Shown piece after piece: positions 10,226-35,326 of a DNA stretch of 64,000 nucleotides. The notes below the pieces were generated by a model. That model had not been told where the DNA came from, made no database searches, and was given only the letters and a program-made list of their open reading frames with translations. The DNA is from a phage, in the NCBI GenBank assembly GCA_024975835.1, contig GCA_024975835.1_4840.1; one strand, 5' to 3'. Numbering within the stretch: the first letter of the stretch is position 1; the number at the start of each line of letters is the position of its first letter. Made by a program: the position numbers and the translations under genes.

Positions 10226-11035
10226 TTAGACCGCAGCCATTTCGCAACGAGTAGAGGTCACAGAGTGGCCGTCAGCGTCTTCAACAACACACCAGTACTC
10301 ACCCTCGTTTTCGGCAGCAACTGCAGTGATAACCAGGCTCGCAGTTGCAGCAGTGGGGTTAGTGCCAGCATCGATCACCTCACCTTCACCACCAGGGACA
10401 TCAGAGAAGTACCAAGTATGTGTGTATGGGGTAGTGCCGCCTGTAGCAGCGATGGTGAAGGTTGCGGATTCACCTGTTGTTACATCCTGAGAAGCAGCCA
10501 GATCGGTAGACAGAGACAGAGCGCCAGCCACTGTGATGACGGTAGAGTCAGTGTGGTCACCTTCGATGGTCACGCCATAAACTGTTACCGAGCCAGGGGC
10601 CAGCAGCTTGAATTTACCACCACCGATGTGCACAGCTTTGGTCAGATCGCCAGAGTACCAGTTGACACCCTGGTAGGTCGCGTTCTCCGGAGCGACGACC
10701 GCCTTCAGTTCAACAACCTGACCGACTTCACCATTAGCAGTTTCAGGGGTGATGGTCAGGCCAGTGGTCAGCACAGCGCTTGGGTCGTGGATTTCATAAG
10801 ACAGCTGGAAGCCAACGGGCTTGGTTGGATCCACTTTGGTGACGCCATCGGCCTGCAAATTGCTCTTGGTCAGCAGTGCATCCAGACCTTTACACTCAGT
10901 CAGGATCTCGTCTGGGTCTTGGTTAAGACTGGTCTTTTCCCAACCCCGAGCAGTACCTGTTACAGTGTGAAGACGCTCAGTTTCCGGTTTGTTGCGAACA
11001 ACTTCCGGTGCTACTAATACAGTGATCGTTGGCAT
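10226..11035 (-). CDS. Ig-like domain protein (possible Hoc-like capsid decoration or adhesin)
   Basis: Thr/Val-rich beta-strand repeats and C-terminal GEYWCVVEDADG (Ig-fold Y-x-C signature); start at ATG 11035 preceded by GGAGGA. Confidence 0.5.
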   Translation of the reverse strand: MPTITVLVAPEVVRNKPETERLHTVTGTARGWEKTSLNQDPDEILTECKGLDALLTKSNLQADGVTKVDPTKPVGFQLSYEIHDPSAVLTTGLTITPETANGEVGQVVELKAVVAPENATYQGVNWYSGDLTKAVHIGGGKFKLLAPGSVTVYGVTIEGDHTDSTVITVAGALSLSTDLAASQDVTTGESATFTIAATGGTTPYTHTWYFSDVPGGEGEVIDAGTNPTAATASLVITAVAAENEGEYWCVVEDADGHSVTSTRCEMAAV

Positions 11036-11406
11036 GGTTTCCTCCACTCATCCAAATCGTTGTTCAGAGCCATCATCAGCTCATTATCTGGTTCGTATGA
11101 ACCGGAACATAAATCATCGCGCCATACGCCTAATGTCAACAAAGCAGCCTTGAGGCGTGGCAACTGGGGCTTATCCACCTTCAAAACGAGCATACGGCAA
11201 GCGGCCTCTGTTTCGAACGTATTGAAGACAGTAATCAATTGATTGAGAATCAACCGAGGACTCTTACCAGGGACAAATCTCTTCAATGATTGATTAATTA
11301 GCGAAATCCGCTGAATGTCTACCAGCAGTTCATCCCACGAGACAGAATCTACAATATAATGCCTCAGTGCATAATCCATCAAGTTGCTTTCGTCAACGAT
11401 AGGCAT
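11014..11406 (-). CDS. hypothetical protein
   Basis: 130-aa ORF. Confidence 0.45.
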   Translation of the reverse strand: MPIVDESNLMDYALRHYIVDSVSWDELLVDIQRISLINQSLKRFVPGKSPRLILNQLITVFNTFETEAACRMLVLKVDKPQLPRLKAALLTLGVWRDDLCSGSYEPDNELMMALNNDLDEWRKPCQRSLY

Positions 11407-16439: not shown

Positions 16440-16506
16440 AGTATAGAAATCCTATCAATGTCAAAGGGGAACATATTGGTTGAGTGGGTATAATACGGTG
16501 GGCGTC

Positions 16507-16528
16507 TTCAATTGAAAAAGCCCTCAGC
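16507..16528 (-). terminator. rho-independent terminator
   Basis: AAAGCCCTCAGCTGAGGGCTTT hairpin followed by TTTTTCAATTG on the minus strand, upstream of the rIIA-like gene. Confidence 0.5.
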
Positions 16529-16545
16529 TGAGGGCTTTGTTCAGA

Positions 16546-17235: not shown

Positions 17236-17687
17236 TTCGTTTCCCCCTTGGCAGCATAGGACAGTGCCTTGACGATCATTACAGCCAGATCGATCGGCGA
17301 GTAGGTGCTGTTCAGATCTTCTCGAACACTCTGCTCTATTTCTTCATCAGACTGGACTACAGGACAGTTCTTTCCCTGGCGACGGCGTTCTGTGTTGATC
17401 ATATCACGCAGGAGCAGATCGGTGAAGGAGTACTCATCAAAGTTTTCCAGATAATTCTGAATCCCAGTGGATACAGGGGTTGGCTCCGGTTCCTGTTCTC
17501 CAGGATCTTTCAGGGCAGCAACAGTGGCATCAATATCCCACAGAGGGTTCAGCAGTAACAGAAGATTAACTGTTTCTCCTGACTCTGAAGTCGGGTTATT
17601 TCCCAGCACCTTGTACAGATTCTTCAGGGTGCTGTCGAAGGTCAGAACGGTCTGCGCCAGTTCTTCATAAGTTGGTTTGGTAGTCAT
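17232..17687 (-). CDS. hypothetical acidic protein
   Basis: ORF-track TTG start lies inside a terminator hairpin; trimmed to in-frame ATG (MTTKPTY) preceded by GGAG. Confidence 0.45.
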   Translation of the reverse strand: MTTKPTYEELAQTVLTFDSTLKNLYKVLGNNPTSESGETVNLLLLLNPLWDIDATVAALKDPGEQEPEPTPVSTGIQNYLENFDEYSFTDLLLRDMINTERRRQGKNCPVVQSDEEIEQSVREDLNSTYSPIDLAVMIVKALSYAAKGETK

Positions 17688-17754
17688 CAGCGTTTGCTCC
17701 GGCGTTTGTTCTTCATCTTTCTTGGCTTGTCTGTCATGTTCCTGTCCACGAAAA

Positions 17755-17796
17755 AGGGGATAGAGCAATAATACCCTATCCCCTTTTATTGAAGAA
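17755..17796 (-). promoter_or_regulatory. terminator hairpin overlapping a sigma70-like promoter (TTCTTC-N17-TATTAT)
   Basis: GGGGATAG...CTATCCCC hairpin with TTTTT tract after the 17800 gene stop; minus-strand -35 TTCTTC at 17796..17791 and -10 TATTAT at 17773..17768 in the loop. Confidence 0.4.
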
Positions 17797-17799
17797 CGA

Positions 17800-18213
17800 T
17801 TAGTCTTCAGATTCTACTTTGCCGCCTCGTAGATCCCGAACTGGTTTACCGTCCGGTGCCATCACATAAATGGTGTTGATTGTCTCAAACCAAGACAGCT
17901 GGTCAACACCCTCGGTGTATGGGGTCACCGGAACAGAAGTCTTGACCTCTTTGCCTTTCGTGTTCGGATGTTCAACCACATCCAAGAACGCACATTTCCC
18001 GCTCGGAAGGATCACACCATCAGTAAACAGCACGATCTTCTTGCGAGGGTTGCTGGCCTCACCCAGGCACACCACCAGATGATGGATCATCTCGGGGCGG
18101 TCAATCAACATGTCGTCTTTGATAATCCCTTGCTTGATAGCAGAGATCACCACCTCATCCAACAGAGCCTGCTGTTGGTCCAGTGTCAGGGATTCAGTGA
18201 GTTTCACGCTCAT
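17800..18213 (-). CDS. hypothetical protein
   Basis: 137-aa ORF. Confidence 0.45.
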   Translation of the reverse strand: MSVKLTESLTLDQQQALLDEVVISAIKQGIIKDDMLIDRPEMIHHLVVCLGEASNPRKKIVLFTDGVILPSGKCAFLDVVEHPNTKGKEVKTSVPVTPYTEGVDQLSWFETINTIYVMAPDGKPVRDLRGGKVESED

Positions 18214-18217
18214 GACA

Positions 18218-18787
18218 TCAGCCTTTGAAGTTAATCGGTTTCTGAATACCAGCGTCGAACGCGGCCTGGGTACGGGTATCGCTCACCACCTGGCAGGTCT
18301 TGTCAAGGTCGATACGCGGGTAGCCGAACATGCCAGCAATCAACGAACCAGGGAACTGAGCCAGCTTGGTTTCGTATATTGTGCAGATATCCAGCTTCTT
18401 GGTCTGGCTGATGCGGAATTCATCACGCCCAGAACTGATCACCACCTGGATCTCTTTGTACAGGCTGGAATCGAACTGAATATTCTGCTCCTGGATCCAC
18501 TGCATGACGGCCTTGGAACCATCAGCACCATAACGCCCTTCGAACGTGCCTTTGATCACTTCCTTCAAGCCGTCTTTATACATGTCAGGAATCTGCGCCG
18601 TCTCCTGAACTTTGAGCGTGTAGTTGCTCAGGTAGTTCTCGGAGTCTTTGTTGAACTTCTTGACCTGCTGCTCAGTGCGGTTGAAGTCGTTGAAGTAGCT
18701 GATGACTGTACCGATGCCGAGAATCACTACACCCAGAAAAGCCAAACCAACTATCCAACCTGTTGCAATACCCTTAGATTGAGACAT
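18218..18787 (-). CDS. LemA-family membrane protein
   Basis: N-terminal transmembrane helix; C-terminal GRDEFRISQTK...FPGSLIAGMFGYP matches the LemA signature; AGAGGAAG site. Confidence 0.6.
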   Translation of the reverse strand: MSQSKGIATGWIVGLAFLGVVILGIGTVISYFNDFNRTEQQVKKFNKDSENYLSNYTLKVQETAQIPDMYKDGLKEVIKGTFEGRYGADGSKAVMQWIQEQNIQFDSSLYKEIQVVISSGRDEFRISQTKKLDICTIYETKLAQFPGSLIAGMFGYPRIDLDKTCQVVSDTRTQAAFDAGIQKPINFKG

Positions 18788-18805
18788 TCTTACTTCCTCT
18801 TTTGA

Positions 18806-19921
18806 TTAAAAATTAAACGGATAACGACGACGGCCACCATTGTACTCCATTCGCTGTAATATGAAAATTGCGGTGAATGGTAAGCAGCCCAGCAGAACAA
18901 CAACCACAACTTCCCAGGTCTTGAGTTCCCGCCACTTCAGGTACTCCATTTCCTTCATCTCAACGCGGTTGTAGCCTTTGGTGATGTTAGCGACAACATC
19001 AGCCATGACACCGACACCCATGTCGTGGCCTGTGAGAGCCATGCCATTGCGAGAATGGAGTTCACGGTTGTGCATACCATCAGCGAACGAAGTGCTCTTA
19101 CCCCAGTTGATCTTCAGGTCTTTGTTGATGTCGGTCACGACGATAACGTCGTTCTTTTTACCACCATCCCAAGCATAGACCAAGCCCTGGAAGTATTCAA
19201 CTGGCTGCCCGGAAGTCACAACCCAGACGATGTTCACCTGCTTGGCTGCGCCCAGCTTCTTCAGGGCATCATTCAGATAATCGTTCCAGTATGTGGTCGG
19301 TAACGCCAGGCCGGACACGTTCAGCACACGAGTGACGCGATAGTAGTCATAGACTTCGGGATACTTCGGAATCTTGTCTTTGAAGCGCTCAGCAAACTGC
19401 TGGTCTGAACGAGAGAACAGAGAGTCTTTGTTGCCCAGCACATAATTCATATATGAATGTTCACGTGCCGCAGGTTCCCCGATTTTAACTTGTGTCCAAC
19501 GCGGAGGCTCTGTAGTACCCTGACGATCAATACGGTCAATGCTCAGATCGCCGACGGTTGTTAATACATCCCAATCAACGTCATAAGAGTGCTCATAGCA
19601 TGTGCTGCAATGACGCGTTTGTGTACAAGATCGGTTATTTCCTGAACCTGTACAAGATGTTGTGTAATAGCACATACATTCATATGAATGCTCACAGCTC
19701 ACCTTATTGCGCTCCTTGCCAGTGACGTATCCGTTCAGGATCTCAACGTCCCCTGAACTGCCGAGGGAGAACGCAGCATAAGCCCCGACCTGAATCAGAC
19801 AGGACAGCACCACCACAATCGCCGTCGCTATCAGGGTCTCTTTCGGCTCATGGGTCTTGCGGTGGTAGGTCACAAACAGGATAGCCAGTACCAATGGCAC
19901 ACCAAACAGGAGGTAGATCAT
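18806..19921 (-). CDS. TPM-domain-like membrane protein with Cys-rich region
   Basis: Transmembrane segments at both ends; ten-Cys segment; VWVVTSGQPVEYFQGLVYAWDGGKKNDVIVVTD resembles the TPM core; paired with LemA as in bacterial LemA-TPM loci. Confidence 0.5.
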   Translation of the reverse strand: MIYLLFGVPLVLAILFVTYHRKTHEPKETLIATAIVVVLSCLIQVGAYAAFSLGSSGDVEILNGYVTGKERNKVSCEHSYECMCYYTTSCTGSGNNRSCTQTRHCSTCYEHSYDVDWDVLTTVGDLSIDRIDRQGTTEPPRWTQVKIGEPAAREHSYMNYVLGNKDSLFSRSDQQFAERFKDKIPKYPEVYDYYRVTRVLNVSGLALPTTYWNDYLNDALKKLGAAKQVNIVWVVTSGQPVEYFQGLVYAWDGGKKNDVIVVTDINKDLKINWGKSTSFADGMHNRELHSRNGMALTGHDMGVGVMADVVANITKGYNRVEMKEMEYLKWRELKTWEVVVVVLLGCLPFTAIFILQRMEYNGGRRRYPFNF

Positions 19922-20304
19922 TTGGATTCACCGACGAGCTGTGCCTTGGTCATCCCAAGGAGTTGATCTTTATGCTCAGGATTGGCACCGTTCTTTAACA
20001 ACAAATCCCAACGCTCTTCATGGTACTGTGGAGTTATTGCATCGTCAAAAGAAACATGGTGGCGATGCATAATTGTTGCAACGGTGTGAAGAACGATTGC
20101 TGTTGCTCTTTTTAAAGCACGTGTATCCGTGATGTGGTCTTCGTATTCGATTCCCAACAAATCGAGTTCTTTTCGGATATATGCTATAGACAAATTACCT
20201 TCAGAATGCAACGCGACGATAGTGGCTTTCTTAGGGTGGAGTGTACCATCCGTTTCTTTCATGAACAGATCGTACAGGTACTGTTTGTATTCGGACTGTG
20301 TCAT
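19918..20304 (-). CDS. hypothetical protein
   Basis: 128-aa ORF overlapping neighbours by 4 nt. Confidence 0.45.
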   Translation of the reverse strand: MTQSEYKQYLYDLFMKETDGTLHPKKATIVALHSEGNLSIAYIRKELDLLGIEYEDHITDTRALKRATAIVLHTVATIMHRHHVSFDDAITPQYHEERWDLLLKNGANPEHKDQLLGMTKAQLVGESK

Positions 20305-20513
20305 TTAGATTCTCCCATGACGATAACAGGAGCGCCATTACGGAAACAACTATATTCTGCAGGAAGACCTTCGCGAACCTTCTGGGCGAACGCTTCAGAA
20401 ACAACCAAACGACCAACCAGAGGTTCTTTTTGTTTTGGGGTGGACTCAAAGTAATCACCAAAAGTCGCTTCCATATCGAGCGCAGACATGTCTTCAATTC
20501 GTTGCATTGCCAT
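20301..20513 (-). CDS. hypothetical protein
   Basis: 70-aa ORF. Confidence 0.4.
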   Translation of the reverse strand: MAMQRIEDMSALDMEATFGDYFESTPKQKEPLVGRLVVSEAFAQKVREGLPAEYSCFRNGAPVIVMGESK

Positions 20514-20524
20514 GATATAGGACC

Positions 20525-20716
20525 TCAGTATAATTTCGTATAAACTTGTTTAACGCCAATATCGGCAGGAGCTGTGCTCTGCTGCATATTATAGAATGCC
20601 AAATCTGCTTGTTCTTTGTTTTCAAAATCAACTACAACTGTGTGTACTGATATTGCTTCACCCTGTCCATAAGCATAACAACGGCTGGTGACCAATATTT
20701 TGTATTGAGGTGTCAT
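20525..20716 (-). CDS. hypothetical protein
   Basis: 63-aa ORF with AAGGA site. Confidence 0.4.
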   Translation of the reverse strand: MTPQYKILVTSRCYAYGQGEAISVHTVVVDFENKEQADLAFYNMQQSTAPADIGVKQVYTKLY

Positions 20717-20738
20717 AAATCAATCCTTGCAAAAAGAA

Positions 20739-20780
20739 AGGGGAACGGGCTAATATTAACCCATTCCCCTTTATTGAAGA
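20739..20780 (-). promoter_or_regulatory. terminator hairpin overlapping a sigma70-like promoter (TTCTTC-N16-TAATAT)
   Basis: AGGGGAACGGG...CCCATTCCCCT hairpin followed by TTTCTTTTTGC on minus; -35 TTCTTC at 20780..20775, -10 TAATAT at 20758..20753 in the loop; same layout as 17755. Confidence 0.4.
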
Positions 20781-20797
20781 ACGCAATCCGCAGTCAG

Positions 20798-20965
20798 ATT
20801 ACTTTTTCTTCAGCTCTTCCAGCTTGGCTTCGATTTGTTCCAGGATGTCCTTACCCTTCTGAACAATCACTTCACCGTCTTGCGCGTGTTTACGGAAGAC
20901 CAGAGCACCAGCTACGAAACCGACAACAACGCCAGGAAGCGCGTACACCAACAGATCTTGTAACA
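20798..20965 (-). CDS. small single-pass membrane protein (55 aa; below ORF-track cutoff)
   Basis: ATG at 20965 preceded by GTGAGGA; MLQDLLVYALPGVVVGFVAGALVF transmembrane segment then charged tail. Confidence 0.4.
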
Positions 20966-21002
20966 TGATAATATCCTCACTTTATAGGCGAGGATATTTA
21001 TA

Positions 21003-22241
21003 TCAGCGTTTCAAGAGTGTCATGAGGTTGACGCTATGTTTGCGCGGCTGCTTGTCCTCAACCTTGCGCACAGGCATCTTCAGGTTCGTACATACCTCGG
21101 ATGGTTCCCAGCGCGTACCCTTTTGCAGGTGCCAGATGTGCAGAGGAACGCCAGTCTCAAAGAACACAGGCATCTTCCACTTCTGGACGCCTGGAACGTG
21201 CCCTGCAGGAGCCTTTTCACACAACAGGGTATCTGGCAGCCAGAGCGAACGGGCTTCCCAGAGCGCTGCGCAGGAGTATTCAGGCCAGACGCGTTCCATG
21301 TAGTCTATCTCATCCCAGGTACGCTCTGCGTCCCACCCGATGTAACGGGTATTCTTCAGTCGGAAGAACTTCTTCAGCCAGCATGCACCGGAGGTTTCAA
21401 AGTTCAGACGGTTGATGAACGTCAGGTGCCCGAACTCAGCCACACAATCCTGGAACGCCTGCTCAAGGTCGGCCTCAAGGATGTCACACTCTTCATCCGT
21501 GATAGGACAACCGTTGATCTTTTTCTTCCCGTGTTTAGTCACCCAATCGTCACGGTTGGACAAGAACGCCGCGCCATTACGGTTGGACTCGCTTCCATCA
21601 CGATCACGCAGCATGAAGCCAGGGACGTCAATGGTGTATTCGTTCCCGAAGACCATGTTCAGGGCTTCCAGGAAGTTCCAGGCGCTCAGGCGACCGAAGT
21701 ATTTCCAGGACATCGCCGTGTCCCACAGCTGGGTGAATTGTTCTGTCTTATCGATGCACACCAACATCCCACGGAAAGCGTCATATTGAGTACGGCCAGC
21801 CAGCCAGTCAATATAGGACTGAACACACGGAATCATCTTGGACTTGCGGTAGCGACAGTCGGTATCGAATCGCATGCGTTCAAAGTTCAGGTTATACCAA
21901 TCAGAGAAGCGCTGCATCTCTTCCTTAGACTGAGGCGGCACAGGGAACTCACTGTAGATTGTCCACGGTCCGACAGCGTTATAGCAACAACCCCACAGGA
22001 ATGCCATCCAGATCTTGCGCTCGACTTTCTGTTCGAGGCTGATGCCTTCAGTGACTTCGATCGCATAGTCCATCAGACGCATCTGCTGGTTGTGCTCTTC
22101 TGTGTAGGACAGCGCCTCCACCCAAGCCTTGAGCAGGTACATGCGATTCTCAGGCTTGCGATAATCAACAGCCAGGTCAATCGGGTACTTCCATTCAGCC
22201 GGAGGCGTATAGCCCGTCGGCATTTTAGATAAATGATGCAT
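21003..22241 (-). CDS. conserved hypothetical protein (412 aa; candidate DNA-modification enzyme)
   Basis: Trp/Cys/Tyr-rich composition; the opposite-strand ORF is Arg/Leu/His-rich; sits with the P-loop kinase and HAD genes. Confidence 0.5.
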   Translation of the reverse strand: MHHLSKMPTGYTPPAEWKYPIDLAVDYRKPENRMYLLKAWVEALSYTEEHNQQMRLMDYAIEVTEGISLEQKVERKIWMAFLWGCCYNAVGPWTIYSEFPVPPQSKEEMQRFSDWYNLNFERMRFDTDCRYRKSKMIPCVQSYIDWLAGRTQYDAFRGMLVCIDKTEQFTQLWDTAMSWKYFGRLSAWNFLEALNMVFGNEYTIDVPGFMLRDRDGSESNRNGAAFLSNRDDWVTKHGKKKINGCPITDEECDILEADLEQAFQDCVAEFGHLTFINRLNFETSGACWLKKFFRLKNTRYIGWDAERTWDEIDYMERVWPEYSCAALWEARSLWLPDTLLCEKAPAGHVPGVQKWKMPVFFETGVPLHIWHLQKGTRWEPSEVCTNLKMPVRKVEDKQPRKHSVNLMTLLKR

Positions 22242-22581
22242 CTTTCGCTTCCTCTTCAGGAGCCAACTGAATGTCTTCTGGTTTCACAAACCCCATCGGA
22301 CGTTCCCACATATCGATGAAGCGGCGGTCGGCGGTCACAAACCAAAGACGGGCTGCAGTGTGGGTCTTACCCGAGATGAACATCTGGGCATTCGTCTGGG
22401 TACGGAACGGAGCCGCCTGCAACCACTTACCGAAGTCTTTGGACGACGGATTGGCATTCAACTGGAACTGAGGGATGACGCAGTTCTTTTCAGGAATCAG
22501 GCGCACGGCAGTAATGTGCTTGGCGTTTCCGGTGTAGTCGATCGCAACAGCCACAGCATCGCGAGGGATTTGAATTTTCAT
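22225..22581 (-). CDS. hypothetical protein
   Basis: 118-aa ORF overlapping neighbours. Confidence 0.45.
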   Translation of the reverse strand: MKIQIPRDAVAVAIDYTGNAKHITAVRLIPEKNCVIPQFQLNANPSSKDFGKWLQAAPFRTQTNAQMFISGKTHTAARLWFVTADRRFIDMWERPMGFVKPEDIQLAPEEEAKDASFI

Positions 22582-22781
22582 TTTGGTTCCTTGAATATTT
22601 TATAGCCAGCAGCGCCGATAGCCATAATCGCGCCGATACAATACAACATGGTCAGGTTCATCTTTTCTGAGGTTGTTAAGTCCAGAGGGGTGAAATGATA
22701 GGCTAGGGCAGTACACATTGAAACGGCTGCCATAACCAGACCAATGAACAACAGATAATTAGACAACCGTTTCATGATCAC
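22578..22781 (-). CDS. small two-helix membrane protein
   Basis: 67-aa ORF with two hydrophobic segments; ATGA overlap with kinase stop. Confidence 0.4.
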   Translation of the reverse strand: MIMKRLSNYLLFIGLVMAAVSMCTALAYHFTPLDLTTSEKMNLTMLYCIGAIMAIGAAGYKIFKEPK

Positions 22782-23695
22782 CCCTTCTTCATCAGGTCAA
22801 GGAGAGAGCGCGACGCTGCCTTCGTTGCTTCTGGCTGGGCGCTCGCCTTGGTTTTAGTTTTGGATGCCTTCTGCGGCTTCTCAGGGACTCTGTGCGCCAA
22901 AGGATCCTGGCCGCCGATTTCACGAGTCATCGGATTGGTTTCACAGTAGGCGTAGAAGTCTTTGGTGTCCATGTTAACTTCACGCAGTTCGGACCGTATC
23001 TGATGACAAATCGCATTACCCACAACCCACAGCGGGGCGTCGAACGGTAGTACCGCCAACTCGGACTGCTGTTTGGTCGTGAACTCCTGGGTGTTGGCGT
23101 CCGGTGATTTATACAGGATATCCTGTCCGCTGTAATCATCAACAGCCACAGTGAAGCCCAGCGCCAGCATTTCGGCCTTCGACTTCTCAAACTCCTTGTA
23201 GTAAGATTCGTTGCGCGACCAGCCGGAGTTCCCTGCTTCTTTACCAGATCGACCACGGATACGAGCATCGTACTGATAGCGGTCGGGGTACGCAAAGTAC
23301 AGCAGCGCCAATGATTCAATCGGATAGTTCTTGAACATCCATTCAGGACGCCATTTGTCCGATAGCATGAGGGGTTCACCCTCGCACACCAGAGTGTATC
23401 CCTGAACCAACCAGCACTTGATTAGATCACGAGCAATATCGCCTGAGCCTGTAGCAGCATGGATTGCATCCATTGAAGTCCAGGAAGCCAGGCCGGATTT
23501 GTTAGACACGGTGTACTGTCCAACGAAGATTAACTTCAGCTCTCCGAACTTCAAGCCAAACGGGCGAGTCTTGTCACCAACGGTGTAGGTCAGTTCGGTA
23601 GGCTCCAGCTTAGTGCGCAGCCATTCGATGAACTGGACCACTCTCGTACCCTTGCCCGTGGCCGAGGTGCCTTTCACTACGATAATTTTTGCCAT
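22778..23695 (-). CDS. P-loop kinase (candidate 5-hydroxymethyl-dU DNA kinase type)
   Basis: N-terminal Walker A IIVVKGTSATGKGTR; 305 aa; Lys-rich C-terminal tail; identity beyond P-loop kinase not established. Confidence 0.55.
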   Translation of the reverse strand: MAKIIVVKGTSATGKGTRVVQFIEWLRTKLEPTELTYTVGDKTRPFGLKFGELKLIFVGQYTVSNKSGLASWTSMDAIHAATGSGDIARDLIKCWLVQGYTLVCEGEPLMLSDKWRPEWMFKNYPIESLALLYFAYPDRYQYDARIRGRSGKEAGNSGWSRNESYYKEFEKSKAEMLALGFTVAVDDYSGQDILYKSPDANTQEFTTKQQSELAVLPFDAPLWVVGNAICHQIRSELREVNMDTKDFYAYCETNPMTREIGGQDPLAHRVPEKPQKASKTKTKASAQPEATKAASRSLLDLMKKG

Positions 23696-24000
23696 TACAC
23701 AGCATCCTCAATACGCCAGCTCACGCCGCCCAGCCAAGGTGCCCAGAACACAGCAACCTGTGGGCGGCCATTCTCTTCAAACTTCACTTTATACTGGTCG
23801 TCGAAGTTATAGAAGATTTCATCCGCTTCAGAGCGCTGGCCGATCTTCACCAGTACATCATGAAGAGCCTTGGCTGCACCGATAGGAGTCGGAGTCTCCT
23901 GCTGACGAATGAAGTTGTTCACATGGTTAATCACGCCATCCATGTCGCTATCACCGAAACGCTCGTCGGGGATTTCCCCGAACTTGGATTGTTCTTGCAC
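23695..24000 (-). CDS. hypothetical protein
   Basis: 101-aa ORF, TAATG overlap with kinase start. Confidence 0.45.
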   Translation of the reverse strand: MQEQSKFGEIPDERFGDSDMDGVINHVNNFIRQQETPTPIGAAKALHDVLVKIGQRSEADEIFYNFDDQYKVKFEENGRPQVAVFWAPWLGGVSWRIEDAV

Positions 24001-24009
24001 GATGTCCTC

Positions 24010-24789
24010 CTATCGGACGTATTGATAATGACTAATCAGGCGGTTCACCACTTCGACAATATTGCGGTTCAGGAAGTCGAAGTGATTCTGGCCTTCTACT
24101 GGTTTAATATAAAGCATGTCTTCCGAATTCGAAAGATCCAGTTTTTCATAATTGCCCTGAGGAACAAAGATGACAAAGATGTTGTTCAGGCCACACGGCT
24201 CGACATACTTCGGATTGTCATCAATCAGGACATCGCCAGCCAGCAGATGCTTTTCGTCGGTGCTGACAAACCCGTTGAAGATACCAGGGAACTTGTCATA
24301 GACAAACTGACGCTTGCTGCGCTCGTGTTCCGGCTCGCACTTCGACACCGCGATGAATTCCACATTGTCGAAATCTTCAAGCAAGATATCCTTCAGATTT
24401 ACCAGGAACTCGTAAGCGCCGGGGAGCGGGTTCATCTTGGCGTACAGGTCAGGGCGACGCCACCAATCCATAGGATCGTTACCGCTTGGCACACGTTGTT
24501 TGTGCATCCCCAATTGGACTTCATGGTATAGCCACGCCGGATGCGCACGTTCACGCATCAGAATAGCCAGGTCGCCAGCATGGGACATATAACACTCTTT
24601 GGTGATCGGCTGGAACTGGTATGACTTATGTTCCCCCGTAGCGATAGCAGCGGCGGCGATGTTCTCTTCGTTGAACCACTGCACCCAAGGGGAGAGGCTG
24701 TCGACCAACGTCAGGTCAACATCCACGAGGACGCGATACAGGCCACCGACCTTTGATTTCATATCATAGATACAAACCAGGTTGTTCAT
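24010..24789 (-). CDS. HAD-superfamily hydrolase (5'(3')-deoxyribonucleotidase-like)
   Basis: N-terminal LVDVDLTLVDS (DxDxT HAD motif I); 259 aa. Confidence 0.5.
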   Translation of the reverse strand: MNNLVCIYDMKSKVGGLYRVLVDVDLTLVDSLSPWVQWFNEENIAAAAIATGEHKSYQFQPITKECYMSHAGDLAILMRERAHPAWLYHEVQLGMHKQRVPSGNDPMDWWRRPDLYAKMNPLPGAYEFLVNLKDILLEDFDNVEFIAVSKCEPEHERSKRQFVYDKFPGIFNGFVSTDEKHLLAGDVLIDDNPKYVEPCGLNNIFVIFVPQGNYEKLDLSNSEDMLYIKPVEGQNHFDFLNRNIVEVVNRLISHYQYVR

Positions 24790-25127
24790 TTGTCTTCCTC
24801 AACTTTATCGTAGCCTGTAGCAACACACTGTTCTTCGGTACAATCTGCATACAGAACGACGGAGGCCTGCTTCACGTAGGTGATGCAGTGGTAAGTTTCG
24901 TCTTCCTGGATGGAATCGTCATAGTTGCAGACAGTTTGGAGCGGACCCGGAGTAGTGTTGTCCAGTGCTGCATGTGCCTTAATGGTGTCTTCCATCTTGG
25001 ACACGGCCTGCTCATTGGTGAACGTCGGCGCGTCAAGGTCTACAGTAGACGCAACGTCCAGAAGGGTGGAACACGCAGTGGTAGAGAAAGCCAGAGCACA
25101 CACCAGAAGAATCTTATTGAGTTTCAT
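24786..25127 (-). CDS. secreted protein or lipoprotein (4 Cys)
   Basis: Signal-peptide-like N-terminus KILLVCALAFSTTAC; start moved to ATG with AGGTGA site; strong promoter upstream. Confidence 0.5.
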   Translation of the reverse strand: MKLNKILLVCALAFSTTACSTLLDVASTVDLDAPTFTNEQAVSKMEDTIKAHAALDNTTPGPLQTVCNYDDSIQEDETYHCITYVKQASVVLYADCTEEQCVATGYDKVEEDK

Positions 25128-25157
25128 TTCAATCACCTGTTTGTCAAAGGGTTAACA

Positions 25158-25193
25158 GGGGGAATTATATCCCCCTTTGGTTTATTGAATCAA
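25158..25193 (-). promoter_or_regulatory. sigma70-like promoter (TTGATT-N18-TATAAT) overlapping a GGGGG/CCCCC hairpin
   Basis: Minus-strand -35 TTGATT at 25193..25188 and consensus -10 TATAAT at 25169..25164 in the hairpin loop; follows the DNA polymerase stop. Confidence 0.45.
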
Positions 25194-28845: not shown

Positions 28846-28865
28846 AAGGGGAGGAAACTCCCCTT
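28846..28865 (+). terminator. rho-independent terminator
   Basis: AAGGGGAGGAAACTCCCCTT hairpin followed by TCTTTTGG. Confidence 0.5.
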
Positions 28866-28883: not shown

Positions 28884-29096
28884 ATGAATGTGGTAAACAA
28901 GAGATTGCTCGTCACCCAAGGCGGGGCGACGATAGTGCGCGGAAGGATCTATGAACAAACACAGCTGGGTGATCACAAGACGCGCCTGACTGTTAAGGCT
29001 CCAGATGGTGGTTGGCCGACAAAGGTAATTGTCCCTGACGGTCTCATAGAACGAGGGTCGGCGGTGTATAAAGGAGCAGAGTTCAAAATTTATTAA
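28884..29096 (+). CDS. hypothetical protein
   Basis: 70-aa ORF after a GGGAATGAATG start context. Confidence 0.4.
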   Translation: MNVVNKRLLVTQGGATIVRGRIYEQTQLGDHKTRLTVKAPDGGWPTKVIVPDGLIERGSAVYKGAEFKIY

Positions 29097-29191
29097 AATA
29101 TTTATTGAATAAAGTTTACTTCTTCAATAACTGGCGTATACTTCTAATTGTAGTACGAACAAACAACAATCTGAAGAGAAGGAAATACATC

Positions 29192-29749: not shown

Positions 29750-29765
29750 TGTGAAGAAATAAAGA

Positions 29766-29784
29766 AAGGGGCTTAACGCCCCTT
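29766..29784. terminator. bidirectional terminator between convergent genes
   Basis: GGGGCTTAACGCCCC hairpin with T-tracts on both strands between the 29749 and 29788 gene ends. Confidence 0.55.
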
Positions 29785-29787
29785 TTC

Positions 29788-30246
29788 TTATTCTTCCCAG
29801 AAGTCTTCGTCGTCCCCGACAGCAGCCAGTTCCGTGTCCAGTTCTTCATCGGTAAACGGTGGCAGCACCCCGTTCTGAATCAGATAATCCATCTCATCAT
29901 CTTCCAGCTGCAGGTCGGTGGCAATATACAGCGCTCCGCTGCCCTCTTCGTCCGTCTCGATACTGTACGAAGTGTATGGCACCCCATTCACTGTAATGAT
30001 GATAGACGTTGGATCCTTGGGATCTACGTGCGCCTCGAACGGCACGCCATCAATCGGTGCGTCTTCCAGGAAGGTGGCAAGTGCTACGGCGGCGCGGACA
30101 ACATCAGTGCCTTCAACGCCTGCATAGATCTCTTCCGCGCCTGTCTCTTCACGATCAAACAGCTCAATCGTGATACCGTCTTGAACACCAGTCCATACAG
30201 GGATGTCATTAGTGTATTCTGATTCAAACAATTTGGAGGTTGGCAT
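29788..30246 (-). CDS. highly acidic hypothetical protein
   Basis: 152-aa ORF, Asp/Glu-rich throughout. Confidence 0.5.
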   Translation of the reverse strand: MPTSKLFESEYTNDIPVWTGVQDGITIELFDREETGAEEIYAGVEGTDVVRAAVALATFLEDAPIDGVPFEAHVDPKDPTSIIITVNGVPYTSYSIETDEEGSGALYIATDLQLEDDEMDYLIQNGVLPPFTDEELDTELAAVGDDEDFWEE

Positions 30247-30390
30247 GTTAGGTTCCTCAGTGGGTTAGCCATATGGGGTATTTAGGCTTCCCGCTTGGCG
30301 ATGCCTGGTTTGTACAGGACGCCTCTCGGAATATTGGAGGAAGGTTTTCATAGATACCCCACACTGGTTGTATGGGGTATTTAGGATGGA

Positions 30391-31584
30391 TCAGGAAGGG
30401 GTGAAGTCGTTCACAGGAACTGTTTCAGGGATAGCCAGCTCAGGGCATGCTGCCTTCATTGGCTCAATGTACGGCTTACTACCCACAATCCAGAACAGAG
30501 TGTTCTCATTGAGCAACTCTGGCTTGTTCTGCTGGATCCAGGTCATGACCTTGCCTTCATAGCGAGGATGCAACTCAATATCGCCCCACTGATATTCCAT
30601 CAGGTCATTATAACGAACCCAATTAGTGGTATGAAGATCCCAATGGTGTACCTCAAAGCGAGGAAGCACGACCTCTGGCTCTTCCTTCTGCCTGATACCA
30701 CTTAGGAGGCCAGCCAGCGAAACGCTCTTAGAGGCATGCTGAAGCTCCTTCTTGCCGTGTACATAGTCTGGGTTGTCGTGATAGCGACGGGTAAAGTCGA
30801 CAATGTGCGGCAGATTGGCATGTTTGCCGATGATGCGCAGGCGGCTCTCGATAAAGTCAAGGCGGTTAGGACCGATGCCGATTAGATACACACGCTTCAG
30901 ATTAGGCTTCGGATGCATTGCCAGCCCGGTCAGGATGCTTGTGCAAGAGTTGCACGATCCGGCTGGGATGATCAGGTCAGTAATGTGATCAGGAATGTTG
31001 GCAACCTGCTCGCCACCCAACATATGGAACCCAGCAATGCGCTCAGGGGAGTGGGCTGTATGGTCGAGGGTGATACCATACTCCAGATAATACGCCTTTG
31101 GATTCTGTTGTTCGATCAACTTCTTACAGCGCGGCTGGATGGTGCTGTTGTAACCCGAGCCGACGAAGTTGAACTCACTACCAAACCAGGCTGACATTGC
31201 CACCATTTCATGGTTCATACAGGTGGTGGGTTTGGTCGCGCCGAGCACAGTAGTTGTCTTGCCGCCGAAGTGCCGAGAGACTGCTGTCGCCATAGGGGAC
31301 TGCGGACTACCAACGACAGTACCATGGATGATGTCAGGGGAGCCTCCGGCCTTGAGGTGCTCAACCATCAACCAGATGGCCTGGCGGAGTTTGCTGCCAT
31401 TGATGCCCTGCTTGGCGTTGGCATAGTTAGACAGCGGCGCAAAATAATCTTCACGCTTGAACCAGACCTGCTGGTTGGTTTCGGGATTGACGACAAGTTC
31501 GCACGGGGTGTGCTTGTAGAGATAGTCTTCCCAGTGAACCAGATTGCGGTCGAGGGAAAGGGTATCGAAAATGGTCTTGTTCAT
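30391..31584 (-). CDS. PLP-dependent enzyme (fold-type II-like; candidate base-modification enzyme)
   Basis: About 400 aa with Gly-rich loops (IIPAGSCNSCTSILTGL) resembling tryptophan-synthase-beta/ACC-deaminase-type PLP enzymes; start moved to ATG with AGGAGAAA site. Confidence 0.5.
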   Translation of the reverse strand: MNKTIFDTLSLDRNLVHWEDYLYKHTPCELVVNPETNQQVWFKREDYFAPLSNYANAKQGINGSKLRQAIWLMVEHLKAGGSPDIIHGTVVGSPQSPMATAVSRHFGGKTTTVLGATKPTTCMNHEMVAMSAWFGSEFNFVGSGYNSTIQPRCKKLIEQQNPKAYYLEYGITLDHTAHSPERIAGFHMLGGEQVANIPDHITDLIIPAGSCNSCTSILTGLAMHPKPNLKRVYLIGIGPNRLDFIESRLRIIGKHANLPHIVDFTRRYHDNPDYVHGKKELQHASKSVSLAGLLSGIRQKEEPEVVLPRFEVHHWDLHTTNWVRYNDLMEYQWGDIELHPRYEGKVMTWIQQNKPELLNENTLFWIVGSKPYIEPMKAACPELAIPETVPVNDFTPS

Positions 31585-31654
31585 TCTATTTTCTCCTGTA
31601 GACATTGGTTTATCATAGTGTATCTACAGGAGTATAGAAAAGGAGAATCTCGGC

Positions 31655-32314
31655 TTATTTCTTGAATAAACGAAGGAACTTCATCATGTTTTCCATGAAA
31701 GTCGGCTTCTTGACCTTTTGTTTTACCGGAGCGCCCTGATCATTCAGAACACGACTGGCCGGAGGAGTAGGTGGTGTCGGTGCTTTCGTTTCACAGGCCG
31801 GAACGATGTTCACGTCATGATGAGAAGACTCAGCTGTAGTGTTAACAACATTGTTCTCCTGGACGACAGGCTTAACGAGATTCTTTTCATACTCGCGAGC
31901 AATCGCCTGGTACTTCCGATTCTCCGCGTCAAAGTCCATAGAAACGACTTTACGACGGCGGCGCGTCGCGCTCTCATCACCATAGAAATCGTATCCGTTC
32001 TTGACCAGCCAGTGTACAGCTTGGACAAATGAATGGAAGATCATGAACGGCTGGCCATTACCCTCTTCAGCAGCGGTGATGCCGGAGTAGCCCATGAGCA
32101 CAACCTGACCCTTTACGTCGAGGTCAAAAGATGTACATTCACCGTGCTGGTTCAGATCACGCGGAGCCAGCTGGGAATCACGATGGATATAATTCGGCGA
32201 CAAAAACTCATTCAGAGTTCGTTTGTTGCCTTTGTATTCAAACAGGCGAATACAGATGGGAGTCGTCAGTTCATGCCATTCGGCATCGTTGACCCAGATA
32301 GAAACATTACGCAT
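31655..32314 (-). CDS. hypothetical protein
   Basis: 219-aa ORF with GAGGA site; Pro/Thr-rich linker; promoter-like element upstream. Confidence 0.5.
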   Translation of the reverse strand: MRNVSIWVNDAEWHELTTPICIRLFEYKGNKRTLNEFLSPNYIHRDSQLAPRDLNQHGECTSFDLDVKGQVVLMGYSGITAAEEGNGQPFMIFHSFVQAVHWLVKNGYDFYGDESATRRRRKVVSMDFDAENRKYQAIAREYEKNLVKPVVQENNVVNTTAESSHHDVNIVPACETKAPTPPTPPASRVLNDQGAPVKQKVKKPTFMENMMKFLRLFKK

Positions 32315-32354
32315 CGGTGTATCCTCAAATCAATGGATAGGGGTTTAACGGTTA

Positions 32355-32383
32355 AATTTTAAACCATTCTATCTCATTGAACA
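32355..32383 (-). promoter_or_regulatory. sigma70-like promoter (TTGTTC-N17-TAAAAT)
   Basis: Minus-strand -35 TTGTTC (32383..32378) and -10 TAAAAT (32360..32355) upstream of the 32314 gene start. Confidence 0.4.
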
Positions 32384-32413
32384 AATACAGAATGGGAAGG
32401 ATGGACAAAAGAA

Positions 32414-32435
32414 AGCCGGATAAGGATATCCGGCT
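32414..32435 (-). terminator. rho-independent terminator closing the tRNA cluster
   Basis: Perfect 9-bp stem AGCCGGATA/TATCCGGCT followed by TTCTTTTGTCC on the minus strand. Confidence 0.55.
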
Positions 32436-32653
32436 ATACCACATCGATGGGATGGGTTGAAAAGACTACACGCTTGCACTGGTACTGCCTTATGGGAGAG
32501 CGCGTCAGGAGTCGAACCTGAAGTCGTCGACGTAGAGAAAGCTATTTGCATTTCACTATCCTCGCCGCGATTTTCTTAACTTCCTAAACACCCCGATTAC
32601 GAGAGAGTCGACATGCACATCTTCTAACTCTTCAGGAAGTCACGCCCGTAATT

Positions 32654-32742
32654 TGGCGGAAGGTGAAGGATTCGAACCTTCGGGGGCTAAAAGCCCCACT
32701 CGATTAGCAATCGAGTCCCTTAAACCTCTCGGGCAACCTTCC
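32654..32742 (-). tRNA. tRNA-Ser (anticodon GCT)
   Basis: Hand-folded: acceptor GGAAGGT/ACCTTCC, anticodon arm CTCGA-TTGCTAA-TCGAG, long variable arm GGGGC/GCCCC, T-arm GAAGG-TTCGAAT-CCTTC, encoded CCA; 89 nt. Confidence 0.85.
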
Positions 32743-32962
32743 AATTTGGACGGGCTTCGCACCCGATTGAGCATTTGATCTACCGTAGCCCAACTCCCCG
32801 CGCTTCTCAGCGCCGATTGGTTAACTGGCGACCAGTGCCTTCTGGTTCGATCTCCTGGAACTTTACAGGCTTTGCGCCAGACCATTTCTGGAAGTTGGGG
32901 CATCGTTTCCGATGTGGAGTCACCCCATTTTATACACAGCTGGCTGCAACGCTTACTGTGTT

Positions 32963-33046
32963 TGGTGTGAGTGGATGGATTCGAACCACCGCGCTGTTAC
33001 GGGGAGATTTACAGTCTCCTGCATTCGACCGCTCTGCCACACTCAC
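32963..33046 (-). tRNA. tRNA-Tyr (anticodon GTA)
   Basis: Hand-folded: acceptor GTGAGTG/CACTCAC, anticodon arm GGAGA-CTGTAAA-TCTCC, extended variable region, T-loop TTCGAAT, encoded CCA; 84 nt. Confidence 0.75.
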
Positions 33047-33303
33047 ATTTGGTCTGCCGCTGCGTGCTGGGCCACGCTCGAGGACATCGGCCATCCTTCC
33101 TCAGCTAATCCACGCAGCGGTAGATTTGTATCAGAGTGTCCGGTGTAGCAACCCGTGAGGTGCGCACTACTGTAGCCTCTACACTCTGAATTTGGTGGGT
33201 GTTACTATCGTCGTCTTCGGATTCCGTTCGGCTATTGGACAGAGGCTTGGAGCTTGTCGGTCGCGTACTTTATGCCTATTCACTTTCGTTCACACCCATT
33301 GTC

Positions 33304-33379
33304 TGGCGACGATGGCAGGACTTGAACCTGCGACATATGGATTAACAGTCCACCGTTCTACCGACTGAACTACATCGTC
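33304..33379 (-). tRNA. tRNA-Asn (anticodon GTT)
   Basis: Hand-folded canonical cloverleaf: acceptor GACGATG/CATCGTC, D-arm GTTC-AGTCGGTA-GAAC, anticodon loop CTGTTAA, T-arm GCAGG-TTCAAGT-CCTGC, CCA; 76 nt. Confidence 0.85.
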
Positions 33380-33388
33380 TTGCAAATC

Positions 33389-33416
33389 ACTATACCATAT
33401 AAAGTTTATTGAACAA
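33389..33416 (-). promoter_or_regulatory. sigma70-like promoter (TTGTTC-N16-TATAGT, TG-extended) upstream of tRNA-Asn
   Basis: Minus-strand -35 TTGTTC (33416..33411) and TGgTATAGT -10 (33394..33389); predicted start falls within a few nt of the tRNA-Asn 5' end. Confidence 0.45.
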
Positions 33417-33550
33417 ACATTTATTTTACAACAAACTGTATTGGCGGGGTCTGAGGCTTTTCACCTCACCTGCTGGGTTTGGCCGCCCAGCCGTTCTCTA
33501 TGAGGATTCACTGTCCGGACAGCTATCCATTAAACTATCGCCCCTCAATA

Positions 33551-33627
33551 TGGTGATCCTGATTGGGTTTGAACCAATGACCAATGAATTATGAGTTCAC
33601 TGCTCTAACCGACTGAGCTACAGGACC
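33551..33627 (-). tRNA. tRNA-Met or tRNA-Ile2 (anticodon CAT)
   Basis: Hand-folded: acceptor GGTCCTG/CAGGATC, D-arm GCTC-AGTCGGTTA-GAGC, anticodon loop CTCATAA, T-arm ATTGG-TTCAAAC-CCAAT, CCA; Met versus lysidine-Ile not resolvable by eye. Confidence 0.8.
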
Positions 33628-35011
33628 AAATTATTGTGTGACCAACCAAGGACTGTCAACCCTTTATCCCGTTTGTGCATGATCAGTTCATACAGGCCTC
33701 TTTGTGCTGCCTCACGGCATGCGCTTCTGTTGGTCATTGGCTTACACTGTGGCCTCACAACAGGCGTTTATTTTTCCAGGGCTTTCCACTTACAAGTCTT
33801 AACCAGACCGGGATACGGGCTTGTAAGATCGGGTTGGACACAACTTTGAGGACACTGACGACGTATACGAGTCACCCATAACAGATATTCGGATGCCAGT
33901 GTCCTCAAAGTTGCAACCAATGTCGCAACTCGCAGCTTCCATACAGAAGCAACTTGTCCTCTAACGCTCGGACCAAACGAGGCTGGCTGGTTGATTCAGA
34001 GCCGCTGGTTGCTCCAGCAAGCATGGGTTGATAGCCCGGCAACATAGAATCACCCAAAGATGAAGAACATTCATGACTCACATCACACCACGAATGGCCT
34101 GAAAGAGAATCGAACTCTTTAAATGCTCTTCATTTTGTGAACTTGAGAATACTACGCCTGTCTCGGGTTTCCCCTTAGTTCGGCCTCCCAGTCCTCGCCG
34201 CGCCGGGTAGCTAACCCTGATGGCTCGTCTGCTACTGAGTTCTTCTTGGTGCCCACCAGTGTCCGGAATGTGTAGGCATCGCAATCTGCAAGGCATGGTC
34301 TATTTCACCCAATGCTCTCTCAAGTTCACAAATCGAAGTGCCCTGACTCAACAGTATGGCCCAATATGCTGTTATCGTCCACCGGATTGGCCGCCCAATT
34401 TGTAGATCAACCTTTGGGTTTAAGATAAATTGTCAAGGCACTTCGATTTGTGTGCCCTTCACCTGCCAGGGATCAGGGCTGATGGCAAGACTTCGCTCAC
34501 ATCTTTCAAGATACTCGTGAGAATATCCTCAAAGATGTGGAGCCGTTTTAGGGAGTCGAACCCAAATGCTTGGCCAGCGCTGACCTTACATCCCATCTGA
34601 CTTAGGCAACCCACCTCTGCTTACTCAGGAGCTTATCCCCTTTGGACAGTCAGATATAACGGCATTGTCGACGGGAGCTTATTAATCACACCCTCCCGTC
34701 TATTTTAGTGCGCCGAATTTGGTGATGAGGAATCGGAAGACCTCACTGACTTATAGGCTGTTACGCCGCCATCAGAACTTCGGAATCATTAGCAGTTATT
34801 TGCTTGGTCAGTTTCTAAAAACCCGCAAAGTCACTCACAACGAAAACGAAAACCTGTTTGAGCACAAGACGCCATGTCCTGGGTTCACATCGAAGTGTTT
34901 GTCTAATGCCCAAACAGCTTTTCGTTCAGTGGGTTAACTATACTTTGTAACCCGTTATTGACAAAACCTTAAATTAAGTTGCGGTGTACTCAAGACCACC
35001 GCACTATTAAT

Positions 35012-35326
35012 CTACTTCAGCCAGCCCATGACTGCTTTGATGGTGTTGTCTGAATTAACTTCCACAGACTCAACCCAAACAGCCTGACACGAGGCCGAGA
35101 AATTATACAGGGCATCGTAGTTCTCAAACTTCTTGTCCACCAGAGCGATGGCACGCTTCCGTCCTGAGATTTCTACCTTGGTTGAGTCTTCAGATTTCAC
35201 CAGAGTGCATGAAACCCCATCCCAACCCAGTTGCTTCTGTAAATTCTCTAAATTGATCATAACTACCTCTTTGTCGATATTTGTTGGACATTTCCATTCG
35301 CGGACTATGTCAACACCCACCAACAT
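35012..35326 (-). CDS. hypothetical protein
   Basis: 104-aa ORF. Confidence 0.4.
   Translation of the reverse strand: MLVGVDIVREWKCPTNIDKEVVMINLENLQKQLGWDGVSCTLVKSEDSTKVEISGRKRAIALVDKKFENYDALYNFSASCQAVWVESVEVNSDNTIKAVMGWLK

Follow-up and report, generated by a model that had tools for sequence, protein, structure and literature searches.

The three intergenic sites and their genomic context

The window, a stretch of 64,000 nucleotides (nt) of phage DNA (GenBank assembly GCA_024975835.1, contig GCA_024975835.1_4840.1), carries three intergenic sites on its minus strand at which a G-run/C-run hairpin coincides with promoter-like sequence. By sequence similarity, the window comes from an Ackermannviridae phage that is Agtrevirus-like (ViI-like). 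The 9 kb around the three sites has matches in 284 phage records, the best of which are Escherichia phages RPN242 and AV101 (~95%) and Shigella phages Ag3 and MK-13 (~90%), all members of Agtrevirus. Minus-strand genes occupy ~1-28200 and 29788-36600, with a short plus-strand island between them. Site 3 lies directly 3′ of the DNA polymerase gene, sites 2 and 1 follow 4.4 and 7.4 kb downstream of it, and rIIA comes next; all genes neighbouring the three sites are on the minus strand. By the annotation of close relatives, the genes between sites 3 and 2 (21003-24789, minus strand) belong to a thymidine hypermodification pathway and encode a 5′(3′)-deoxyribonucleotidase, a P-loop nucleotide kinase and an alpha-glutamyl/putrescinyl thymine pyrophosphorylase clade 2.

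The three sites share a common layout on the minus strand, in which the word TTCAATAA (hereafter, the box) is followed after 12 nt by a hexamer of the form TAnnnT, and the hairpin extends over both the spacer and the hexamer (Table 1). Each site lies between genes, with the stop codon of the preceding gene on one side and the ribosome-binding site and ATG of the following gene on the other. The first-pass annotation of this DNA had described G-run hairpins with the -10-like hexamers TATTAT, TAATAT and TATAAT, and these sequences are present as described; the spacers of 16-18 nt that it gave between its proposed -35 elements and the hexamers measure 17, 17 and 18 nt. Its choice of TTCTTC or TTGATT as the upstream element, on the other hand, did not hold. 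These hexamers are not conserved, and the invariant word is instead TTCAATAA, displaced from them by 3 nt in the downstream direction, to about -32 to -25.

Sites 1 and 2 are a pair of 47-nt direct repeats with 74% identity. At both, most of the -10 hexamer is base-paired in the upper stem of the minimum-energy fold, around a 4-nt loop, so the placement of the -10 in the hairpin loop is exact only at site 3, and at sites 1 and 2 the hexamer is at the apex and mostly paired. AAAA/UUUU flanks lengthen the stems. The suggestion that each hairpin is the terminator of the upstream gene is likewise borne out in part: a GC-rich hairpin with an immediate U-run, as in intrinsic terminators, is found at site 1 (CCCCUUUUUCG) and at site 2 (CCCCUUUCUUUUUG) but not at site 3, which would be a weak terminator at best. 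The site 3 hairpin read on the plus strand is followed by TTTGGTTTATT and is terminator-like in the scan, and in Kuttervirus the site 3 tail is richer in U than that of the window.

Table 1. Positions of the cassettes, their elements and other predicted box promoters in the window. Ranges written high to low follow the minus strand; z-scores of the folds were computed against shuffled sequences.
Feature	Position	Strand	Remarks
Site 1 cassette	17752..17796	-	hairpin, box and -10-like hexamer
Site 1 -35-like TTCTTC	17796-17791	-	weak
Site 1 box TTCAATAA	17793-17786	-	
Site 1 hairpin AAAAGGGGATAGGGTATTATTGCTCTATCCCCTTTT	17787-17752	-	-25.3 kcal/mol, z -6.0
Site 1 -10-like TATTAT	17773-17768	-	at apex
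Site 1 U-run	ends 17749	-	
Ribosome-binding region and ATG after site 1, ACAGGAACATG	17735..17745	-	
Site 2 cassette	20730..20781	-	hairpin terminator-like in scan
Site 2 TTCTTC	20781-20776	-	
Site 2 box TTCAATAA	20778-20771	-	
Site 2 hairpin AAAGGGGAATGGGTTAATATTAGCCCGTTCCCCTTT	20772-20737	-	-25.8 kcal/mol, z -6.2
Site 2 -10-like TAATAT	20758-20753	-	
Site 2 U-tract TTTCTTTTTG	20739-20730	-	
Site 3 cassette	25157..25193	-	
Site 3 TTGATT	25193-25188	-	overlaps DNA polymerase stop codon TGA (25192-25190)
Site 3 box TTCAATAA	25189-25182	-	begins directly past DNA polymerase stop codon
Site 3 hairpin AGGGGGA-TATAAT-TCCCCCT	25176-25157	-	-18.5 kcal/mol, z -2.7
Site 3 -10 TATAAT	25169-25164	-	exactly the hairpin loop
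Box promoter before 32314 gene, TTCAATGA	32356..32381	-	12 nt to TAAAAT; TTG in front; no embedded hairpin
Box promoter before tRNA-Asn, TTGTTCAATAA	33389..33413	-	11 nt to TATAGT; TGG abuts hexamer (extended -10-like)
Box promoter heading leftward gene block, TTCAATAA	36583..36608	-	12 nt to TATAAT
rIIA upstream cassette, different register	16490..16538	-	hairpin just upstream of box
rIIA terminator hairpin AAAGCCCTCAGCTGAGGGCTTT	16538-16517	-	U-run runs on into box variant
rIIA box variant TTCAATTG	16516-16509	-	then 13 nt to TATTAT
rIIA -10 TATTAT	16495-16490	-	

The box is over-represented and stands at a fixed distance from the hexamer

The longer word TTCAATAAA has seven exact matches in the window, where 0.52 would be expected; every one of them is on the minus strand, and none of 100 shuffled sequences reaches seven. 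Word and spacing counts at the scale of a whole genome were made in the complete genome of the relative MK-13, in which TTCAATAA occurs 30 times (about 3.9 expected), mostly between genes by our reading of its annotation. A maximal-order Markov background is uninformative for this enrichment, because the sub-words of the box are themselves enriched. The distance from the box to a following TAnnnT peaks sharply at 12 nt in MK-13, where seven of the 30 boxes have it, and the composite pattern TTCAATNN-N12-TAnnnT is found 13 times against 1.3 expected.

The trinucleotide TTG often stands just before the box (TTGTTCAAT). In one of the homologous regions compared (L009), in which a different gene precedes site 3, the site reads CTAATTCAATAA; here TTGATT has become CTAATT and TTCAATAA is kept. 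By eye the box recalls a site for integration host factor, a reading that was set aside since the 3′ TTR half of such a site is absent. Additionally, the box is part of a 13-nt palindrome, TTTATT-C/G-AATAAA, at 29101-29113 and 35961-35973, a form that would suit a dimeric DNA-binding protein.

Hairpin and hexamer are conserved together across enterobacterial phages

Homologous regions were taken from IMG/VR contigs (three Agtrevirus-like, LIMEstone1, Serratia IME250 and four Kuttervirus-like) and from two Taipeivirus genomes, Erwinia phiEa2809 (Nezavisimistyvirus), Serratia KNP4 (Miltonvirus) and Vibrio phage K393. Agtrevirus, Limestonevirus, Kuttervirus, Taipeivirus and Serratia IME250 have the full set of three cassettes. 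Erwinia phiEa2809 has sites 2 and 3 with stems of other sequence, and Serratia KNP4 has site 3 with a spacing of 14 nt. The motif is kept across enterobacterial genera, and the cassettes are much better preserved than the coding sequence that flanks them. The homologous intergenic regions of the distant Vibrio phage K393 (12973-20334 of region L015) lack the box TTCAATAA; they have instead plain terminators and, within a few bases of these, extended -10 sequences (e.g. TTTTTTCATGTATAATGG). On the sequences compared, the cassette form is specific to the enterobacterial clade, because the K393 regions lack the box and show ordinary terminators.

The stems change in a way that preserves pairing. 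Specifically, at site 2, six of the 11 stem pairs differ on both sides between Erwinia and the other phages, and are compensatory. In the site 2 alignment 44 of 44 pair cells are standard, a value reached by none of 500 shuffles; if the structure is shifted along by 1-3 columns, pairing is 39-64%. The site 3 stem reads GGGGGA/TCCCCC in the window, GTGGGGC/GCCCCAC in Erwinia and GGGGGC/GCCCCC in Serratia KNP4. The other stem changes, those of site 1 included, are one-sided GU/GC or UG/UA switches. In line with these changes, the sense RNA folds better than the antisense RNA in 16 of 17 cassette copies, since G·U pairs exist on the sense strand only. Taken together, the compensatory pairing and the better folding of the sense RNA in these alignments indicate that selection acts on the RNA hairpin in the coding-strand transcript.

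The hexamer follows a different rule. The site 2 alignment is free of gaps from the box to the hexamer, and within it T21, A22 and T26 (-12, -11 and -7) are invariant, while the hexamer as a whole reads TAATAT, TATTAT, TATATT or TATGAT. These three positions are the most conserved ones of the sigma-70 -10 element. In Kuttervirus the stem is one G shorter and the hexamer stands 1 nt further along, which restores the 12-nt spacing to the box. The site 3 hexamer reads TATAAT, GATAAT or TATACT across genera. As judged from these alignments, the hexamer is conserved in the pattern of a sigma-70 -10 element and not in that of a structural loop, since the size of the predicted loop varies among cassette copies. 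With compensatory stems, fixed hexamer positions and fixed spacing, the hairpin and the promoter-like element are superimposed in one conserved unit, as the first-pass annotation had supposed in calling them fused.

Gene content changes at the cassette edges

Directly after site 2, the window and one homologous region (L003) have an open reading frame (ORF) of 63 amino acids (20525-20716, minus strand) that is absent from Ag3, MK-13 and LIMEstone1, and in Kuttervirus and Taipeivirus the next gene, an ORF of 70 amino acids, is absent as well. Three gene contents are found among the genera downstream of site 2, with the breakpoint between the cassette and the ATG. At site 3, region L009 has a small ORF (10905-11192) inserted between the DNA polymerase stop codon and the cassette, and the stop codon TAA of this ORF directly abuts TTCAATAA, so that the insertion point coincides with the 5′ edge of that box. 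The ATG after site 1 opens only a 16-codon remnant (MTDKPRKMKNKRRSKR, ~17685-17735, minus strand), which overlaps the start of the DUF7181 gene; the homologue of MK-13 gp065 has here lost about 310 nt in frame. This deletion lies inside the gene and not at the cassette.

The sites as probable composite promoter-terminator cassettes

Composite elements of a comparable kind are known from T4-type phages, as regulatory units and as proposed points of recombination for gene shuffling. Arbiol et al. (2010) described intergenic elements called PeSLs (promoter-early stem-loops) in RB49 and phi1, in which a strong sigma-70-like promoter is combined with a stem-loop; the stems contain poly-G/poly-C tracts and G-T pairs, the stem-loop lies mostly between -35 and -10 or over the -10, promoter and terminator activities were shown with lacZ reporters, and the elements were proposed as recombination sites that shuffle the small genes beside them, with crossovers mapped to the stem-loop or its immediate vicinity (PMC2839356). 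Comeau et al. (2014) reported PeSLs from T4/PST and KVP40/nt-1 as well, and introduced PmSLs (promoter-middle stem-loops), whose Mot box at -30 stands in for the -35 and is paired with TATTAT (PMC4122927). Like PeSLs, the cassettes of the window are intergenic, extending from the stop codon that lies upstream as far as the downstream ribosome-binding site and ATG; their G-run/C-run stem-loops with G-T pairs are predicted to act as terminators or attenuators; a predicted promoter lies within the same roughly 60 nt; and there are several copies per genome, sites 1 and 2 being paralogous repeats. Insertions and deletions of small genes next to sites 2 and 3 may be signs of a shuffling role like that of PeSLs. 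Unlike PeSLs, they occur in Ackermannviridae and not in Straboviridae, their upstream half is not TTGACA or TTTACW but TTCAATAA, 3 nt further downstream and at a fixed 12 nt from the -10, and they stand among conserved genes of nucleotide metabolism and DNA modification rather than only in hyperplastic ORFan regions. With the PmSLs of Vibrio phage nt-1 and the MotA-dependent middle promoters of T4 they share a box near -30 in place of the -35 and a sigma-70-type -10, often TATTAT, 12±1 nt past the box, and with PmSLs also the combination of box promoter and stem-loop. The box itself is distinct, TTCAATAA as opposed to the T4 Mot box (a/t)(a/t)TGCTT(t/c)A. The cassettes also resemble intrinsic, partly bidirectional terminators in having a GC-rich hairpin followed by a U-run (sites 1 and 2) and an upstream A-tract that mirrors the U-run, yet they differ from plain ones in the conserved apical TAnnnT in register with an upstream word, and at site 3 in lacking a coding-strand U-run.

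We therefore consider it probable, on the sequence comparisons above, that the three sites are composite promoter-terminator cassettes of the PeSL/PmSL type in an Agtrevirus-like phage; promoter activity, termination efficiency and start site at the three cassettes are what we infer from these comparisons. RNA from the upstream gene would fold its G-run/C-run inverted repeat into a stable hairpin. Where a U-run follows (sites 1 and 2), this hairpin should work as an intrinsic terminator or attenuator; without one, as at site 3, it would more likely serve as a weak attenuator or as a stabiliser of the 3′ end. The AATAAA before the stem corresponds to a U-run on the opposite strand, and the unit could also stop antisense transcription. 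The same DNA would recruit RNA polymerase through TTCAATAA and the sigma-70-type -10 at the apex, with the 5′ arm of the repeat filling the promoter spacer and TAnnnT placed exactly 12 nt past the box. Transcription would start in the 3′ arm of the hairpin (presumptively about 17761 at site 1), and the new RNA would hold only half of the stem. New transcripts should thus escape the terminator and reach the downstream gene, because they start in the 3′ arm and the 5′ arm is missing from them.

Parts of these loci have been listed before. In the Ag3 paper (Anany et al. 2011, PMC3121705, Table S2), site 3 is the predicted early promoter Porf237, site 2 is the terminator Torf248 (-22.9 kcal/mol), and Porf067 and Torf069 overlap at another locus; promoters and terminators are given there in separate lists, and the overlap, TTCAATAA and the spacing are not noted. 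In the LIMEstone paper promoters were predicted from T4 consensus sequences only, and a 2024 review of Ackermannviridae makes no mention of promoters or transcription. Our literature search found no description of a PeSL-type cassette for Ackermannviridae. If correct, the cassette design in Ackermannviridae extends a principle known from T4-type phages to a second family, with the family-specific word TTCAATAA as its new component. TTCAATAA-N12-TAnnnT would also be a testable promoter motif with which transcription units of the early and middle classes could be annotated in the roughly 280 records of related phages matched here; Ackermannviridae relatives are used in the biocontrol of Salmonella, E. 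coli O157, Shigella, Klebsiella and Dickeya.

Several observations weigh against reading the sites as cassettes with a working promoter. The -35 positions match sigma-70 poorly, TTCTTC at two of six positions and TTGATT at four of six, and a sigma-70 consensus scan gives a promoter-like match only at site 3 (10 of 12 positions) and not at sites 1 and 2. A C-rich stretch just past the -10 would disfavour stable open complexes. On the terminator side, site 3 of the window has no U-run on its minus (coding) strand (CCCCCUGUUAACCC), and all compensatory changes at site 2 come from one lineage. The AATAAA part of the box can equally be explained as the A-tract of a terminator, that is, a U-run of the opposite strand. 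TTCAATAA also occurs in the spacer of promoters of the form TTTACT-N16/17-TATACT and, inverted, upstream of them; because the word occupies these other positions too, it is not a fixed element of a core promoter. Finally, a literature search for TTCAATAA, for mapping of transcript starts and for transcriptomes in Ackermannviridae returned nothing relevant.

Alternative explanations

The weak and unconserved true -35 positions would be expected if the promoters were factor-dependent in the manner of T4 middle promoters, with a phage-encoded or virion-delivered activator binding TTCAATAA at ~-30 and replacing the -35 contact. The geometry is that of the T4 Mot box, a 9-mer centred near -30 followed after 12±1 nt by TAnnnT; the word is flexible in position and sometimes lies within the palindrome TTTATTCAATAAA; and box promoters precede rIIA, tRNA and nucleotide-metabolism genes, with TTTACT promoters preceding clusters of small unknown genes. 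The same protein, bound in the spacer of TTTACT-N17 promoters or upstream of them, would shut those off. With T4 MotA and AsiA as queries, tblastn and phmmer gave no significant match to either the window or the complete MK-13 genome, with the limit that remote homologues would escape these searches, and Pfam applied to eight proteins near the sites found no phage sigma factor but only DUF7292, DUF7181 and a weak PALP match. Moreover, the box promoter at 36608 heads a block without upstream transcription and may need unmodified host polymerase, and the TTG before the box fits an ordinary weak sigma-70 -35. We regard dependence on a factor as unlikely; it would refine the composite-cassette explanation and does not compete with it as an exclusive alternative. 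Should the box depend on a factor, it would point the way to a new regulator of host RNA polymerase. A bolder form of the proposal, which we hold to be somewhat less likely still, is that TTCAATAA is the recognition word of an Ackermannviridae transcription factor, MotA/AsiA-like in action and not homologous, that activates box-N12-TAnnnT and represses TTTACT-N17 promoters, and would make up a second, independent solution for the early-to-middle switch among T4-related phages. The activated targets would then include rIIA, tRNAs, genes of nucleotide metabolism and DNA modification and possibly the gp55 and gp33 genes; the early TTTACT-N17 promoters would be repressed through the word in their spacer or upstream; and the -10 inside a terminator hairpin would insulate each middle unit from early read-through.

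The remaining explanations dispense with one part of the composite cassette or add a further function to it. Were the sites bidirectional intrinsic terminators and nothing else, the AT-rich apex would merely resemble a -10 and TTCAATAAA would be an A-tract opposite a U-tract. That the AAAA/UUUU flanks extend the stems and that the plus strand of site 3 ends in a terminator-like tail would agree with this, and AT-rich loops often fit TAnnnT by chance. What makes it rather improbable is that the middle of the hexamer varies and its positions -12, -11 and -7 do not, that the hexamer moved by 1 nt after a stem deletion, that box and spacing also occur without a hairpin, and that the TTC of the box is conserved although an A-tract has no need of it; further, the neighbours share the minus strand, which leaves no annotated convergent transcription for a bidirectional terminator to stop, and many other terminators of the genome carry plain tetraloops, GAAA or TTCG. 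The first-pass annotation had gone further than the composite cassette in suggesting that read-through may be coupled to re-initiation. By analogy, a polymerase that ends at the U-run might stay on the DNA and re-initiate at the embedded promoter: in single-molecule experiments in vitro, E. coli RNA polymerase often stays on the DNA after intrinsic termination, diffuses and re-initiates nearby, with an efficiency that depends on the distance from terminator to promoter (PMC6978380), which here is essentially zero. Such recycling is so far known only from work in vitro (PMC6978380), the sequence does not separate coupling from independent recruitment of polymerase, and the other cassettes hold the hairpin in different registers, which speaks for compaction rather than a precise geometry of hand-over; we consider coupling quite improbable. 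Least probable of all appears a role at the level of DNA, either as a cruciform that exposes a single-stranded -10 or as a recombination hot spot, in place of an RNA hairpin. The crossovers mapped at PeSLs, which are proposed recombination sites, and the changes of gene content at the cassette edges are in its favour, but a recombination role is compatible with a regulatory one, and the greater stability of the sense hairpin over its complement (through G·T pairs, in the copies counted above) argues for selection on RNA and not on a two-sided cruciform.

Predicted box promoters elsewhere and cassettes in other registers

The box and its hexamer behave as one unit in other places too. They occur without an embedded hairpin before the 32314 gene, before tRNA-Asn and before the first gene of the leftward block (Table 1); the first two had been pointed out in the first-pass annotation as related elements, and they are real and have the same box-to-hexamer geometry. 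Rfam, run over the whole window, found four tRNAs and no other known RNA family. Upstream of rIIA the same components are arranged in a different register, an arrangement found also in Taipeivirus and Serratia KNP4. In MK-13 the -10 again stands at the apex in copies at 3923, 97944, 114718 and 97287, and copies in other registers are present at 41202, 114755 and 146007; the U-run continues into the box at 114755, as it does at the rIIA promoter. The copy at MK-13 146007 (region L013), before nrdA, has the hairpin CGCCGCC/GGCGGCG with the box variant TTCAATCT in its loop and TATAAT right after the stem; in Ag3 this hairpin is listed only as terminator Torf095 (PMC3121705). A permissive genome-wide hairpin scan comparing -10-like apices in early and late regions was noisy, and its numbers were too small for significance.

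Two matches of the box pattern in MK-13 lie within genes: box-N12-TAAAAT at 129120 and box-N12-TATAAT at 156340, inside the RNase H and RuvC-like genes. Their places are just upstream of the gene for the late sigma factor (gp55-like) and a few genes ahead of the gp33-like gene, and they may serve the late transcription factors as internal promoters.

The second promoter type, TTTACT-N16/17-TATACT with TTCTTCAATAA in the spacer, is present in the window at 29115-29142 (plus strand) and in MK-13 at 54046, 98952, 135930, 143005 and 150273; the copies at 98952 and 135930 share the leader TATACTTCATTCCATAAGCAG. These promoters often come directly after a terminator, whose U-run supplies the -35, and their form fits the T4/PST PeSL promoter consensus TTTACW-N17-TAYWAT (PMC4122927). 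The box copy at 29109 is the reverse complement of an AT-rich element upstream of the plus-strand TTTACT-N16-TATACT promoter. A small RNA starting from this minus-strand box was considered and rejected, as the conserved 200 nt are the plus-strand gene 28884..29096, which is annotated in Klebsiella phage FKP14. Two bidirectional terminator-like hairpins, at 28846-28865 and 29764-29786, flank the plus-strand island, which has the DNA polymerase gene on one side and the 29788-30246 gene on the other.

On the antisense strand near site 2, a near-consensus sigma-70 match (TTGCCA, 16 nt, TATAAT; 11 of 12 positions) lies at 20507-20534 (plus strand), at the junction of the extra ORF of 63 amino acids and the next gene. 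Its transcript would run towards the hairpin of site 2, for which the plus strand also has a U-run.

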